Below, piece by piece: positions 1,910-20,524 of a stretch of 64,000 bases of DNA (position 1 is its first letter; each line of letters starts with the position of its first letter). A model generated the notes under the pieces. The model made no database searches and was not told the origin of the DNA. It saw only the letters and a program-made list of their open reading frames with translations. Where the stretch lies: NCBI GenBank assembly GCA_021613535.1, contig CP075495.1, positions 13,454,001 through 13,518,000 of the forward strand. Direction: 5' to 3'. Both the position numbers and the translations under genes were made by a program. Origin of the DNA: Adineta vaga (lineage: Eukaryota > Animalia > Rotifera).

Positions 1910-2245
1910 ATGACACAACGTTCTGCATCACAACTCTATTTTGATTTAATTCGTCTATTTAAACAATGGCCAATTGATAAATCAAAAACAGGTCGTGATC
2001 TTGGTGAAAAATTACGTGAACAATTTTCGAAATCATTTGCACTTGGTGAAAATTCTCAAGTGAATGTCAACGAATGGAATCATTTTTACGATAATATGAA
2101 ATTACTAATATCCAATGATATTAAAAATCGTTATCCACGAGATCGTAATTGGACAGCATCGGGTTTAAGTCGTGAACAATTACGCTTTATACTTTCGAAT
2201 AAAAGTCTTCAAGCTAATAAAGATTTCATGAAAAAAATGAAATAA
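1910..2245 (+). CDS. UQCC2: Ubiquinol-cytochrome c reductase complex assembly factor 2 (intronless CDS, 111 aa)
   Basis: LF..WPID.SK.GRDLGE.LR, F..GENSQV and RYPR...SGLS.EQ...ILS match the UQCC2/MNF1 family pattern. AATAAA (2241-2246) overlaps the stop codon. Confidence 0.9.
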   Translation: MTQRSASQLYFDLIRLFKQWPIDKSKTGRDLGEKLREQFSKSFALGENSQVNVNEWNHFYDNMKLLISNDIKNRYPRDRNWTASGLSREQLRFILSNKSLQANKDFMKKMK

Positions 2246-2294: not shown

Positions 2295-5200
2295 ATGCGA
2301 TTAACAGAACGGGAATTTGAAAATTTAAAAATTAGTTATGCTGGTCTTCTAGCACAAAAACGTCTTGCTCGTGGTGTACGTTTAAATTATCCTGAAGCAG
2401 TGGCACTTATATCTTCACAATGTCTAGAAATTATTCGTGATGGAAAATCAACGTTAACGGATATTCAACAAAAAGCAAAGAAAATGCTTGGAAAAAATAT
2501 GGTATTAAATGGTGTTCCACAAATGATAAAAGAAATTAATCTTGAAGCAACATTTCCAGATGGTGTGAAAATCGTATGTTTACTTTTGATTATCGATTGT
2601 TTTCATTTTCATATCATCTTTATCAAAGGTAATGATTCGAAATCCAATCTGTACGGATATGGGTGATTTAGAAATAGCTTTCTATGGAAGTTTTCTGCCA
2701 CTTCCATCGACCGATTTATTTCAGGTAAAGAAATTCAATGAATGAGAAAAAAATGATTTCATTTCTTTTGCTTTTTATTTATAGAAAGGAAATGATGCAG
2801 AATCAGGCCCTCATCCAGGTGAAATATTTCTAAAAGATACTCAACCAATTATCCTTAATGCTGATCGAGATAGTATATTTATTACTGTGACAAATGAAAG
2901 TAGTGAACTTATATCAGTTGGAAGTCATTATCATTTTGTTGAGACAAATAGACATTTAGCATTTGATCGAACACTTGCTTATGGAATGCGTCTAGTAAAG
3001 AACATAATTTATAAATCTTTCCAGCAAATTTATTTGTCGTTTTCATAGAATATTCCTGCAGGTGATATTTTAACATTTAATCCTGGCGAACAAAAAGAAG
3101 TTCCACTTATACCTATTGGTGGACAAAGGTAAATACTACAAATGAACTATGTGATTGCAAGGAATTAGTATCTTTCTATTTTATTTAGAATAATTCATGG
3201 TGGTAATGGACTCTTTGATGGCCCTGTGAATGATGAAAATTTGAAAAAAAATCAAAAAAATTTACGTAAAAATAATTTTCTACATGTTGATGAGAAAAAT
3301 AGTGTAGAAAAAGTGAATCGTATTTCAACAAAATATCCTCTTGCTCGAGATTTATATCTTGGTCGTTATGGACCAACTACAGGTGATCGAGTAAGTAGAT
3401 TTCGATTACATAATAATGAAGAAAAAAAAAAGATCTACTACTATTTATTTGATGTATACATAGATTTTACTTGGTGATACAAATTTAGTTGTACAAGTGG
3501 AAGTTGATTTAACAACTTATGGTGAAGAGTGTGCGTTTGGTTTAGGAAAAGTTAGTGAAGATTTGGTACTAGGGAAAAAATAATAAAAAGAGATCCTTTA
3601 GGTTTTAAGGGAAGGTATGGGTCAAGCATCAAATACACGAAATGATGTGGCATTAGATACAGTGATAACCAATGTTGTTATTATTGATGCTATTCTTGGT
3701 ATAATTAAAGCAGACGTTGGAATTAAAGTAAAATTATTGATTGAAATTTTGTGCTTTTCTATTCGATAATCAATTGTTTAGGATGGTGTCATTGCAGGTG
3801 TTGGAAAAGCTGGAAATCCTCAAACAATGTCTGGTGTTACTGCGGTATGTTGATAATATTTGCGATACTTGTACTATATAGATTACTACATTTTTAGGGT
3901 ATGATTATTGGTGTTGGAACTGAAGTAATTCAAGGTGAAAATCTAATCTTAACACCTGGTGGTATTGATCCTTGTGCTTATTTTACTTCTCCTGATGTGA
4001 TAACAGAAGCATTAATGAGTGGTGTAACAACAATGTTTGGTGGTGGCACAGGAATGAATGGTAGTGTAACAATGTCGACACCTGGTCCAAATCATATTAA
4101 ACATATGATTCAAGCAACAGATGATTATCCATTGAATTTTGGTTTCTATGGAAAAGGAAATACATCAAAACCAGAAGGTTTATCCAAAGAACTTGAAGAT
4201 CAAATTGTTGCTGGTGCCATTGGGTTTGTATTTATTTTTTCTAAAACTAAATGAAATGAATTTTTTGTTTAGTTTACGATTAGATGAACGATGGGGTGCA
4301 ACACCTTCAGCTATTGATACTTGTTTACGTGTTGCTGAATTTCATGATATTAGTGTACGTTGTTTTCTTTCTCATTTAAATAACCTTTCCTCACTTTACT
4401 TTTTCTTTCTTTCTTTAGGTTCACGCTGATTTAGATAGTTTACGAGAAGCTTACAGTTCTCCTGATGCTATTGGAATATTTCGTGATCGCGTAGTTTTAA
4501 TTCCATGTACAGAAACGGCTGCAGCTCGTGGTAATTTTTTTGATTTACTTCAACAACCAAATGTGATAATAACATCATGCAATAATAAAGCAGCTGTATA
4601 TCGTCAACCTGGGTAAAAATTTATTTTCAAAAATATTCCAATACATTTCTTAGGTTTCTTTTTTTTTGTAGAGAAAATCAAAAACAATTAGCTGTAGAAG
4701 ATTTTCTTCATGATATTGGAGCAATAAGTATTATTTCATCATCATCACAAGTAATAGCAGAATATTTTGTGAATATCATTAGTAAATTAGTTGTTTGATT
4801 TTTATAGTCAGGTGGTCATGTTGGTCGAATCGTACCACGAACATGGCAAATAGCTGATAAAATGAAAGCTATTACTGGTTATTTATCAGAAGATAAAGTA
4901 TGATAACTGATTGTTTTGAATCGACCGAAATAATCAATTAAATTTGTTCTTCTTTTTTTTCCGCGGATAGGAAAATTCAAATGACAATAATCGTGTTCGA
5001 CGTTATATAGCTAAATATACGATAAATCCAGCATTGACACATGGTTGTGCTCATGTTATTGGTTCTATTGAACAACATAAAATGGCTGATCTTGTACTAT
5101 GGCAACCAATGTTCTTTGGCGTTAAACCAGAAATAATCATTAAAGGTGGTCAAATCTCTTGGTCTCAATCTGGCATTGGTATCTATGCTGATATTCGACC

Positions 5201-5575
5201 AGAACCTATTTGTTTACGAAAAAAATTCGGTGCTGTTGGTCGAAGTCCTAATGCAAATTCTGTCGTATTTGTTTCTAAAGTAATTATTTGATTTGGAATC
5301 TTTATAATGTCAAACAAAACTTTCATTTGTTCATTAAGGCATGTGCAGAATTAAGTGCATCAAATTCATATGGTATATGTAAACATGTCGAAGCCGTCCA
5401 TGATATTCGTATGATTACACGTTTACAAATGATTCGAAATGACAATACACCAAAAGTTGATGTTGATCCAACAAGTGGTCAGATTACCGTTGAAAAAGAC
5501 GGAGAAAAAGTTGTGAATGAACCATTACCACTTGCTGCTCGTTTACCATTAGCTCAACGTTACTTTATGTTTTGA
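2295..5575 (+). CDS. Single-chain (gamma-beta-alpha fused, plant/fungal architecture) urease homologue with a degenerate active site; multi-exon
   Basis: Gamma: [21 protein letters not shown]...EATFPDG. Linker: YGSFLPLPS. Beta: [27 protein letters not shown]. Alpha: [56 protein letters not shown]. Hand-splicing across the short GT-AG introns keeps the frame open to the stop at 5575. Confidence 0.95.
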
Positions 5576-5753
5576 ATGTTCTTTGTATTTGTGTATTTGT
5601 TAATTCTAAAGCATAGATAACTAGTCAGGATAGAAAAATGTTCATTCCTATATATGTTGTTTTTATATGAAATTTTGCATCATATTCTCTCCTTTTTTTA
5701 ACGTTATTCCATCGTCAGATTTAATATGAATTCTTCTCCTCCAGATAGATAAG

Positions 5754-7406
5754 ATGAACGACGAGATAAAACATTTTCCAGAAAATGTTCAAAAACTATT
5801 AGCAGATGCACGAATACCAATTGAGCAATTGAAACCAATTTATTATGAATTAACCATTGGTGAACATTTTCCAGATGATTCTATTCGATTGATTGAAGTT
5901 AACAATACATTAATTGAAGAATTAGATAAGAATAAAAAGTAATGAATTCTTATCTGATGACTTAATGAAAGTTCAATATCATTTGAAACTATCTAGACTA
6001 GTCATTCGTGGTACACATGATGATTTTGCGACATTGTGTACATCAGAACAAGCTTTTGAACTGAAAACAGCTGAAACATCGAATACCTTATTACTTGCTA
6101 GTCCACTTGATTCATCGTTGGCAAATAAAGAAAATGGATGTGTTTCATTGAAAGTAATATCTTTTCGTATGTGAATTCAATTTTGAAATAACCAAAACAA
6201 GGTATTATTCAGGTCAATACAATTCTACATGCAAAATATGAATTAACTCCATCTGTACCGAAACTAAAACGAATACGTCAATTACTAGAAGAAAAACTAT
6301 ATCGAGGTCATTTTGATGATGATGAAGATACTTTTACACGAAAAGTATTTGCATGTTATGATTTTCTTCGAAATACTCATTTTTTTCTCCTATATAGATT
6401 ACATTAAATGATCTAAAAAATGAAGTACAAGCGAGTGATCAAGCTATCGATGTTTATTTGAAAAAACTCAATGTTATTACAGTCGATGGTTGGTGAATTT
6501 GTAATCTTTTATTTTCAAATATAATCATACTTTTTCAGGTCATCTACGTTTATTGGATTTCGATTTTCGTACTAAACTCATTGAATACATTTTTTCATTA
6601 ATATCAATTCATGATTGGTCAAACGAGAATATTCCAATTGATAAATGTGCTTCAGAAATGAAAGAAATGTGTCCAAAGTAAACAAAGAATAAAATATCTT
6701 TTGTTTTTCTTCAATAAAAGAATCGATGATTATAGATCTGTTGCCAAACAATTTCTCGAACAAATTGGTACAATTTCAACAGATGGTAAATCAATTTTTT
6801 CGGGATGAAAATGAAATTTTTTCGATTGAATCTATTTTCAAGGTAATTCCATTGCTTTGAATGCCAATACAATATCCATTCATTATGCATTAGATTTATT
6901 ACGAAACTTAGAAAAAGTAATAGTAAAAAAATTGTATATATAGAACGAAAATTGATTTTATTTTTGTATTAGATGAAATTATCTGAATTTATGACATGTT
7001 GGAGAGAATGTGTTCCAAGTGAATTTCCAATTAATTTAGAACAATTAATAGTAAGCAATTGCTCATACTTATTTGATTAAATTAAATAAGATTTTGCTTT
7101 CTATTAGGGATTTGTAATTCATTCTGAAGATACAATTGCTTACATTGATGTTGATGATCTCAGTGAAAAAGCGGATGAACGGTAATAGATTTATTGAATG
7201 AAAAACAAATAATATTAACAACTGTATTCTTTATTTTTAGAATTAAAACATTATTTTCTCGTAAGAATCTTTGGACATTATTAGAATTAGAACCATTCTT
7301 GTCAAATTTAACAACATCAAGTGCAGAATTCATTACTTTATTAGCAACACATACACGTAGTATTATGAAAGATGGACAGAAATATTATGTTCCTAAATAT
7401 AGTTAA
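5754..7406 (+). CDS. DSCC1: Sister chromatid cohesion protein DCC1; multi-exon
   Basis: LVIRG..DD.A.LCT....ELK.AETSNTLLL, VQASD, and C-terminal RI..LF....WTL.ELEPF motifs of Dcc1. Confidence 0.9.
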
Positions 7407-7540: not shown

Positions 7541-8059
7541 TCATACATTAGATGGAATACGATAGAGTGGTTCACGTGGTGGTGGTCTTGTTGGCATTGG
7601 TACTGTATTATCGGTGGTCTTTGGCTCAACAGGTTTCCATTGTTCTTGATAAAGTGCTGCTAAACCATATGCACCTGCGCCAATAATTAATGATATAGCT
7701 GGTACAATTGTTGATATGAGAAAAAGACATGGTAAACTAAGTAAAATATATACAGCAAAACGAATAAAGTAATTTCGAGTCAATGCTCCTAATTTTGTCA
7801 ATAAAATCGATGGATATTGTTGTAAAGGTCGTGCTTTTGATTTTTTTACAATACGTCCACTACGTGGATATTCAATTAGAATAATAAATAAAGCAAGAAT
7901 AAATCCATAAATAGATATTTGCCATAATGAAAAGCGAAAAATCATTGTTAAAATACTGAATATTCCAAGAATATAACCGGTTATTAGCACATGTTCATTT
8001 GCCCACATGGCCCATTCAATTGTACTGGTAGGTAATACTGGTTTTGGCGATGTTGACAT
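7541..8059 (-). CDS. CYBA: Cytochrome b-245 light chain (p22phox), intronless CDS
   Basis: IEWAMWANE, IEYPR, RNYF.R, EQW.P and C-terminal Pro-rich PTRPPPR motifs are diagnostic of p22phox. Confidence 0.92.
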   Translation of the reverse strand: MSTSPKPVLPTSTIEWAMWANEHVLITGYILGIFSILTMIFRFSLWQISIYGFILALFIILIEYPRSGRIVKKSKARPLQQYPSILLTKLGALTRNYFIRFAVYILLSLPCLFLISTIVPAISLIIGAGAYGLAALYQEQWKPVEPKTTDNTVPMPTRPPPREPLYRIPSNV

Positions 8060-18253: not shown

Positions 18254-20524
18254 TTGTGACTCCATTCGTTGTTGTCATTGCTGAAGTAGTTGTGGGTGAT
18301 GTAGTTATTGTCGATAATAGCGTAGCTATAGAATAAAACAAAATACGCGCCATAAAAATATGTTATCATCTGTGCGTAGTTTTCGTATTTCTTCACAATG
18401 TTAATTCATCTACTGATAATTATAATTAGTCAAACTGTGAAAATCTTGTCTCTGAAAATTTGTAAAACTCATCTAACAAAATGCAATAATACAATACAAA
18501 AAAGTGACGCCGCATACATAATAATCGATCTATTCATTTTCGATGGTATTTTCATTAAAAGTTGCCGATTATCAAAACGATTTCCATATGACAAAAAATA
18601 AAATAATAAATGCTCTAAGATGTTATTCGAATGAACTAGTGAATATATTTATATATCCATTTCCCGTGTTTATAAAGAAGAACTATGATAATATGTTAGT
18701 TTTCGATATACAATTCTTTTCTTACTTGAAGTACTCTTTACATTTGTTCAATACTATTTTAATAAAGAATATTGAGAATCAACCTTGTTCTATGAAACTA
18801 GAGTCATTGGAATGGATAGTTGATATTAGAAAAACTTTTTTCGATAAGCAACGACTGACTTTTCTCTATTTCTTCTTTCATTTTAATAATTGCAGAAATC
18901 TTGAAGTAAACTCGCCACATATTCTAATGTGAAACACTCTCCTGCATTTAAGAAAAACTAATGAATACCTGATGTTGCAAGGACAGACATTGATGTTATA
19001 TCTGTGTGACTCATTCCAGTTGTAGCAGTTGAAGCACCATCTAAATATACATAGATATATCTTCTTCTTTTTTACATACATTCATCATACTCATTGAGTT
19101 GGATGTTGTGTCTGACATCCACGGCTTCGTTTCAGTTGGTGATCTGTTAGTCGAATATATTGTAATTGTCGTCATCGTTGCAGTCATAGATATACTAGTA
19201 GACCCTATCATACTTGTGAATGCTGCTCCTGTAGTTCCTGGCATACTTGTGACTGCTGTTCCCGTAGTTCCTGGCATACTTGTGACTGCTGTTCCTGTAG
19301 TTCCTATCATACTTGTGACTGCTGCTCCTGTAGATCCTGGCATACTTGTGACTGCTGTTCCTGTAGTTCCTGGCATACTTGTGACTGCTGTTCCCGTGGT
19401 TCCTGGCATACTTGTGATTGCTGTTCCTGTAGTTCCTATCATACTTGTGACTGCTGCTCCTGTAGATCCTGGCATACTTGTGACTGCTGTTCCTGTAGTT
19501 CCTGGCATGCTTGTGACTGCTGTTCCTGGCATATTTGTGACTGCTGTTCCTGTAGATCCTGGCATACTTGTGATGGCTGCTCCTGTAGTTCCTGACATGC
19601 TTGTAACTGCTGTTCCTGGCATATTTGTGACTGCTGTTCCTGTAGATCCTGGCATACTTGTGATGGCTGCTCCTGTAGTTCCTGTCATGCTTGTAACTGC
19701 TGTTCCTGGCATATTTGTGACTGCTGTTCCTGTAGATCCTGGCATACTTGTGATGGCTGCTCCTGTAGTTCCTGACATGCTTGTAACTGCTGTTCCTGGC
19801 ATATTTGTGACTGCTGTTCCTGTAGATCCTGGCATACTTGTGATGGCTGCTCCTGTAGTTCCTGACATGCTTGTAACTGCTGTTCCTGGCATATTTGTGA
19901 CTGCTGTTCCTGTAGATCCTGGCATACTTGTGACTGCTGTTCCCGTGGTTCCTGGCATGCTTGTAACTGCTGTTCCGATAGTTGCTGGGATACTTGTGAC
20001 GGTTGCTCCCATGGTTCCTGCATACGGTTGTGACTGCCCATGGTTCCTGGCATACTTGTGACTGCTGTTCCGTAGTTCCTGGCATACTTGTGACCGCTGT
20101 TCCGATAGTTGCTGGGATACTTGTGTGATGCTGTAGTAATTGTTGCAGTATGGTAGATGCTGTAGTAATTGTTGCAGTATTAGTCGATGCTGTAGTAATT
20201 GTTGCAGATTGGTAGATGCTGTAGCAGTTGTTATTCCTGTTGCAGTATTAGTCGATGCTGTTGCACCTGTGGCAGTGTTGGTGATACTGTAGTTACAGTT
20301 GTAGTGTACGTTGATGCTGTAGTCGCTGACGTAGTTGTTACCGCTGCTGCTGTTGTTGTTGTTGAGGTAGTGATTACTGTGGTAGTAGTTACTGTCGTGG
20401 TTACTGTTGTGTCTGTGTTAATACTGCTTTTTGTATATACAGGAATAAGTCCTAATACAATTACTACTGTGGCAAAGCCAGAAAACGCACCCACACCTAA
20501 TAATACAGTTTTTAATGCAACCAT
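18254..20524 (-). CDS. Mucin-like Thr/Ser/Met-rich tandem-repeat protein with N-terminal hydrophobic anchor; apparent frameshifts at ~20030-20285; 3' end uncertain
   Basis: N-terminal MVALKTVLLGVGAFSGFATVVIVLGLIPVY, then Thr runs and 11-aa repeats TAVTSMPGTTG. Further Thr-rich exons at ~18970-19040 and ~18254-18327 have GT/AG boundaries. Confidence 0.65.
19204..20125. repeat. Coding minisatellite: 33-bp unit with a 90-bp higher-order repeat (about 5 copies, 19501-19950)
   Basis: Unit cctggcatacttgtgactgctgttcctgtagtt. Lines 19561/19741 and 19621/19801 are identical, consistent with 90-nt periodicity. Confidence 0.95.

Follow-up and report, generated by a model that had tools for sequence, protein, structure and literature searches.

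The bdelloid rotifer Adineta vaga carries an expressed, intact gene for a urease-like protein in which all six nickel ligands are replaced and the mobile flap is absent. Judged from the sequence, the protein is a pseudoenzyme and not an open-lidded urease, as the six ligands are gone besides the flap. It is an ancient pseudo-urease common to all four syndermatan lineages sampled; dead ureases themselves have precedents. On balance, this intact urease-fold protein, for which no urease activity is predicted, is probably a non-catalytic oligomeric scaffold or adaptor, similar to the CRMPs among amidohydrolases. The window analyzed here is the whole stretch of 64,000 nucleotides, and its features are collected in Table 1.

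Table 1. Features of the urease-like gene and its surroundings; positions are those of the window.
Feature	Position	Strand	Basis or remark
Urease-like gene (gamma-beta-alpha fusion; I4U23_009948 / FUN_005712)	2295..5575	+	15 exons, 819 aa
Exon 1, most of the gamma domain (PF00547, aa 1-100)	2295..2573	+	gene model, Pfam
Exons 3-5: beta domain (PF00699, aa 136-233), linker, start of the alpha N-terminal arm	2785..3390	+	gene model, Pfam
Cys407 and Tyr409, replacing nickel ligands His134 and His136	3973..3981	+	alignment
Arg492, replacing carbamylated Lys217; Asp494, replacing His219	4277..4285	+	alignment
Asp521, replacing nickel ligand His246	4428..4430	+	alignment
Cys547, replacing nickel ligand His272	4506..4508	+	alignment
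Flap remnant, aa 573-589, 17 residues vs 44 canonical, split by intron 11	4584..4693	+	alignment, model
Intron 11, 59 nt, GT..AG, phase 2, within the Gly582 codon	4613..4671	+	gene model, RNA contigs
Ser606, replacing nickel ligand Asp360	4742..4744	+	alignment
UQCC2/CBP6, upstream neighbor; stop 49 bases before the urease-like ATG	1910..2245	+	PF20180 E=2e-13; context, functional link not implied
DCC1, downstream neighbor	about 5750-7400	+	
Cytochrome b558 alpha subunit (p22phox) gene, intronless	7544-8059	-	PF05038 E=3e-35
Long open frames on both strands, Thr/Ala-rich repeats, mucin-like on minus	19044-20417	-	open frames

The reading frame of the A. vaga gene model has no stops and no frameshifts, and the translated model shows 0 differences from A. 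vaga UJR28719.1 (P0001). All 14 modelled introns are spliced in the contigs of each of three RNA-type runs (X11, X15, and X17) from three studies. The run labels are "RNA?" for X11 and X17 and "?" for X15. FUN_005712 was identified in Table S2 of PMC12220480 by its neighbors DCC1 and UQCC2; the flanking entries there are FUN_005711 and FUN_005713. In that table its mean expression is 18-22, like that of its neighbors (the unit TPM is read from the legend of Table 4), and it is slightly up in spaceflight (log2 0.23, FDR 0.014). This modest expression argues against a bulk structural role.

The original prediction was that the flap has been deleted and that its flanks are joined across a short intron. 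The transcripts bear this out. RNA contigs from the three studies join position 4612 to position 4672 with the predicted junction sequence, and a low-depth metatranscriptome contig (X20) has the same join; runs X18 and X19 reach only the 3' part of the gene and are uninformative on this junction. The assembly is not at fault. The DNA contig of run X2 crosses 3979-5700 with 0 gaps, and that of run X8 crosses 3880-5295 with one 1-base insertion, which is intronic. The RNA junctions and the gap-free DNA contigs of the two runs indicate that no flap exon is hidden, collapsed, or missing. Counted from the equivalent of PSSTN as far as "LH" in EDxLH, this segment has 28 residues in bdelloid proteins and 55 in 8/8 canonical ureases. 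The net loss is 27 residues, in agreement with the original figure of about 30, and it includes the equivalents of Cys319 and His320.

The loss was also thought to lie at an intron position, with exon loss as its possible origin. Intron 11 does split the remnant, but the placement of the deletion point at this intron is not established. The 17-residue remnant was scored against canonical flap segments at every cut, once with 280 segments and once with 145 distinct ones. The highest score falls on a cut immediately behind TSCN, 9-10 codons upstream of the intron, and the cut at intron 11 is among the worst. An equally large difference between cut points was given by 277 of 5000 shuffles (p about 0.06). 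The chance that at least one of the 14 introns of this gene falls in a 17-codon window is about 25%. The residual lengths of the flap region also vary between lineages: 26 in bdelloids, 24 in P. laevis, 22 in Seison (a value from manual anchoring at motifs; automatic alignment placed the segment elsewhere), and 12-16 in the monogonont type, vs 53 in canonical ureases. Exon loss at intron 11 is neither needed nor favored, and as the origin of the deletion it appears weakly disfavored. The best cut after TSCN, a weak signal, suggests that the remnant resembles a diverged second flap helix and that the first helix and the Cys-His turn were lost. The flap is absent in every syndermatan orthologue whose record covers this region; the Neoechinorhynchus record stops before it and gives no length.

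In a nickel urease, the two Ni ions are coordinated by four His, one Asp, and a carbamylated Lys (PMC7547064). The A. vaga protein keeps 0/6 of these ligands (C407, Y409, R492, D521, C547, and S606 are at their positions), and the equivalents of His219, Asp221, and Arg336 are D494, R496, and G582. The ligand numbering is that of K. aerogenes, and it agrees with the mutant names in PDB listings. All ten key residues are intact in 279 of the 309 aligned proteins of at least 480 aa. Another 21 have 0/6 ligands (16 bdelloid, 4 monogonont-type, and 1 acanthocephalan), and the remaining 9 are fragments or show few changes. Seison and Neoechinorhynchus proteins are likewise ligand-less, the latter in a record that ends before the position of Asp360.

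Pfam families PF00547, PF00699, PF00449, and PF01979 are all found above cut-off in the A. vaga protein. The urease-alpha equivalog TIGR01792 has a cut-off of 680 bits, which is missed by the proteins of A. vaga (545), P. laevis (400), and Brachionus (407); the Lingula urease scores 908. Based on ligands, flap, and equivalog score, the A. vaga protein is placed outside the nickel ureases, and it is predicted to be without urease activity. The UreD/UreF/UreG markers PF01774, PF01730, K03189, and K03190 are absent from the entries below gene 7,700 in the A. vaga annotation table, which runs to at least 28,500 genes, and no such accessory-protein entries are seen in the supplements for D. truttae, which are filtered lists.

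An AlphaFold model, built on an alignment rich in canonical ureases, has pLDDT 86 and pTM 0.91, with pLDDT under 50 at aa 574-583. Its TM score to jack bean urease (4H9M) is 0.93. In the structural comparison, ureases match best (E 1e-102 to 1e-57), and dihydropyrimidinase and hydantoinase reach only about 1e-13 with 14% identity. The model made from 23 pseudo-ureases alone is poor (pLDDT 52) and unusable, as expected with a shallow alignment. In the ESM Atlas, the only matches were generic clusters of amidohydrolases and ureases. The model thus predicts that the urease fold is retained in the A. vaga protein.

Ligand-less orthologues are present in bdelloids (three species of Adineta, five named taxa of Rotaria, and Didymodactylos), in monogononts (Brachionus plicatilis and three proteins grouping with it), in the acanthocephalans Pomphorhynchus laevis and Neoechinorhynchus agilis, and in Seison nebaliae. 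A ligand-complete urease is found in 0/6 rotifer- or acanthocephalan-named proteins among the best 120 matches listed, and canonical animal ureases scored well inside the same list. A word-indexed search with the P0096 query missed bdelloid proteins, so absences from such searches are weak.

Syndermatan sequences are monophyletic in four quick trees (SH-aLRT 99-100), and long branches (Seison above all, also P. laevis) could inflate this value. The ligand-less clade groups with animal-type ureases, with support 93 in one tree and 76 in another. A spacer indel is 16 or longer in 14/14 syndermatan proteins and 15-17 in 42/43 named animal proteins; the same spacer is 12 in 38/38 plant and 25/27 bacterial proteins. 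The syndermatan proteins contain a second animal-type indel, which is also found in Vitrella and one diatom. One clade with animal-type indels across the lineages indicates that the loss likely predates the syndermatan radiation.

FUN_005712 is flagged as HGT in Table S2 of PMC12220480, yet the three best hits listed there are animals. The indels and the orthology across Syndermata suggest that this flag is a false call. Recent HGT is disfavored by the orthologues in four lineages and the two indels, but AU tests leave non-animal sisters standing: sister groupings with bacterial (p=0.32), plant (p=0.46), or fungal-like (p=0.27) ureases are not rejected. Vertical descent, unproven, appears to be the better reading.

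The gene is under purifying selection and is not decaying. In runs labelled organism A or B, 13 synonymous and 4 non-synonymous exonic variants are seen (p=4e-6). The metatranscriptome exonic variants, among the rows listed, are 26 synonymous and 8 non-synonymous (p=5e-11). The expectation for both counts is 77% non-synonymous. Protein identity to Adineta is 89-91% in Rotaria and 81% in Didymodactylos. Rotifers are reported to have lost over 2,000 ancestral gene families (PMC12460157). The persistence of a dead urease gene in four lineages despite this gene loss implies some role without nickel or urea chemistry. P. laevis is reported to be without over 20% of conserved metazoan genes (PMC7310846), and the urease-like gene is kept in it.

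Conservation across lineages was counted over seven full-length syndermatan proteins. The active-site half of the barrel together with the flap remnant (aa 501-589) contains 0/89 invariant positions, vs 134/716 elsewhere (p=7e-8). Nearly all of the 134 hold the canonical residue, and they are distributed in the gamma, beta, N-arm, beta-sandwich, and C-terminal parts. PMC7547064 describes the large interfaces of the trimer in solved ureases as alpha-alpha, alpha-gamma, alpha-beta, and gamma-gamma. Selection thus maintains the body of the protein but not its pocket. This points to an assembly that is non-catalytic and works by way of its surface, and the difference in invariant positions favors a CRMP-like scaffold rather than a ligand pocket that is open and conserved. 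Folding alone, rather than contacts, may explain the invariant residues.

The evolution of this protein could be considered as follows. The ligands and the flap are absent from the sequence. By established chemistry, without the carbamylated Lys, the four His, and the Asp there would be no dinickel site and no urea hydrolysis. The tree and the indels point to a single inactivation of an animal-type urease gene, probably in the syndermatan stem. The flap, then dispensable, may have been shortened and then have drifted to lineage-specific lengths. Based on the conservation, selection would keep the parts that in solved ureases build the fold and the trimer contacts, and the protein likely still assembles and acts via its surface. 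Replacements of K217 by Arg and of H246 by Asp are common to bdelloids and monogononts and absent in acanthocephalans and Seison; in the former two, the Arg492-Asp521 pair, a putative salt bridge, likely fills the empty metal site.

Loss of the flap was originally expected to leave a permanently open pocket, perhaps for a larger ligand or a partner protein. Across the lineages, the lack of any invariant position in aa 501-589 contradicts a pocket for a larger ligand, but such a pocket is possible within bdelloids, where 80/89 of these positions are identical between A. vaga and Didymodactylos carnosus, vs 571/716 elsewhere (p=0.02). A pure scaffold does not predict this conservation. R492, D494, R496, D521, and C547 are also fixed in 13/13 bdelloid sequences. 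These facts would fit a metal-free sensor or carrier, at least in bdelloids, that holds a metabolite (urea, a ureide, or a larger compound) in the uncovered barrel without turnover, and a precedent is claimed in the pseudoenzyme DPYSL2, said to bind dihydropyrimidines (bioRxiv 10.64898/2026.06.14.731825). Acanthocephalans and Seison have other residues where the ligands once were, and this, with the absence of invariant positions across lineages, makes such a sensor rather unlikely. The FGGGK loop of the neighboring subunit, which presumably lines the active-site entrance, is changed to FG[LIV]GK-like sequences in bdelloids, acanthocephalans, and monogononts; as a conjecture, this would narrow the entrance. 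The polar residues fixed at the former ligand positions in bdelloids might alternatively support a new reaction in the former active-site barrel that needs no metal, with Cys547 as a conceivable nucleophile together with Arg492, Asp494, and Asp521. In the other lineages, the position of Cys547 is held by Tyr, Ile, Gln, Phe, or Leu, no catalytic constellation is common to them, and we consider new catalysis improbable. The putative role with a partner protein is the half of the original prediction that fits the evidence best.

The other explanations find less room beside the non-catalytic scaffold. Plant ureases have membrane-active and antifungal side activities, reviewed among their non-catalytic properties in PMC6077230, and fungal pathogens attack bdelloids (PMC11258130), so that a non-catalytic defense protein could be imagined. 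The family PF18473, the plant-type linker present on most plant matches, is however absent from the A. vaga protein, and the gene is kept in endoparasitic acanthocephalans. The word "urease" was not found in the searched part of the fungal-infection supplements of PMC11258130, a weak point since 4 files lie outside the search, and one small supplement file of PMC10809525 contains no urease match. There is little to recommend the defense role. The conserved subunit-forming domains would also suit an inactive subunit with a regulatory role in assemblies with an active urease. This is very improbable as all 6 of the rotifer- or acanthocephalan-named proteins among the best 120 listed are ligand-less; a urease acquired horizontally from bacteria or fungi could escape such a search. 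An assembly artefact, a missing or collapsed exon, or a decaying pseudogene has next to no chance: it is refuted by the RNA junctions, the continuity of the DNA contigs, and the synonymous excess, and the same state is found in many species.

It can be speculated further that, when Syndermata arose, the urease scaffold turned into a receptor or adaptor that is non-enzymatic and essential. It would be a molecular synapomorphy, indispensable even to gutless gene-poor parasites, and the uncovered barrel mouth would have re-evolved as a binding site in bdelloids. This is doubtful as a whole. If true, the protein would be to ureases what CRMPs are to dihydropyrimidinase. It would also be a candidate drug target in acanthocephalans, as their fish hosts are likely without the gene.

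The closest known system is the canonical single-chain nickel urease (EC 3.5.1.5; jack bean 3LA4/4H9M, Lingula, Nematostella, and Mytilus), which has the same gamma-beta-alpha fusion and the same four Pfam domains. The Lingula urease is 50% identical to the A. vaga protein over 862 columns, and the animal-type indels are common to both. The A. vaga protein differs from canonical ureases in the replacement or deletion of the six Ni ligands and of the equivalents of His219, Asp221, Cys319, His320, and Arg336, in the shorter flap, and in the score below the TIGR01792 cut-off.

CRMP/DPYSL proteins (PF01979) belong to the same amidohydrolase superfamily, and in both cases the barrel is without the catalytic equipment of its parent; the A. 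vaga protein matches PF01979 and has its ligands replaced. CRMPs have no dihydropyrimidinase activity, are oligomeric, and bind tubulin and other partners (PMC4051505). They differ in being dihydropyrimidinase-derived tetramers with known partners and without gamma and beta domains. The A. vaga protein is not a CRMP by descent, but by analogy it likely works like one.

Soybean Eu5 (SBU-III) is expressed and has been suggested to be non-ureolytic through mutations including deletions (PMC5452136). Eu5, compared here by its description and not by sequence, has two active urease paralogues in the same plant. Unlike Eu5, the syndermatan gene is kept across four animal lineages, and no active paralogue was found among the best 120 matches listed.

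Bacterial UreC-like proteins annotated as "urease subunit alpha" in Serratia, Pseudomonas chlororaphis, Chromobacterium, and Martelella also have most or all Ni ligands replaced. Many of them keep a segment of flap length, and they form a separate bacterial branch in the tree, which indicates that their ligand loss is independent of the syndermatan loss. Three to six nickel ligands are lost in P0477, P0345/P0490, P0353, P0369/P0492, P0366, P0340, and P0354. The species of this set are Serratia entomophila, S. marcescens, Pseudomonas chlororaphis, Chromobacterium haemolyticum, Martelella alba (a beta-alpha fusion), Thiorhodovibrio, and Wenjunlia. Another ligand-less urease-alpha, P0372, has a C-terminal beta domain, and this alpha-beta order is the reverse of the usual one.

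Our literature search, with most subscription journals outside its scope, turned up no published description of a pseudo-urease in rotifers or acanthocephalans. Reviews, in the passages concerned, describe animals as being without urease (PMC6077230, PMC7547064). In the databases, however, many invertebrates have ligand-complete ureases, and in one whole animal clade the copy is dead yet strongly selected. Single-chain ureases with all ligands in place are annotated for cnidarians, molluscs, brachiopods, annelids, chelicerates, tardigrades, priapulids, echinoderms, hemichordates, and amphioxus. A 2025 paper puts the homologue of the acanthocephalan D. truttae among nickel ureases and hydrogenases said to support nitrogen metabolism (PMC12274423). 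The present results correct the annotation of the ligand-less syndermatan proteins, whose UniRef name is "Urease". These proteins also offer a clean natural system for the long-running question of the roles of urease apart from catalysis.

UQCC2, the urease-like gene, and DCC1 are tightly packed on one strand. An identical 9-base non-genomic leader is present at 2290 in the RNA contigs of two runs, with an AG acceptor just before the ATG. We take this leader to match the bdelloid spliced leader. It suggests trans-splicing of the transcript, perhaps from an operon.
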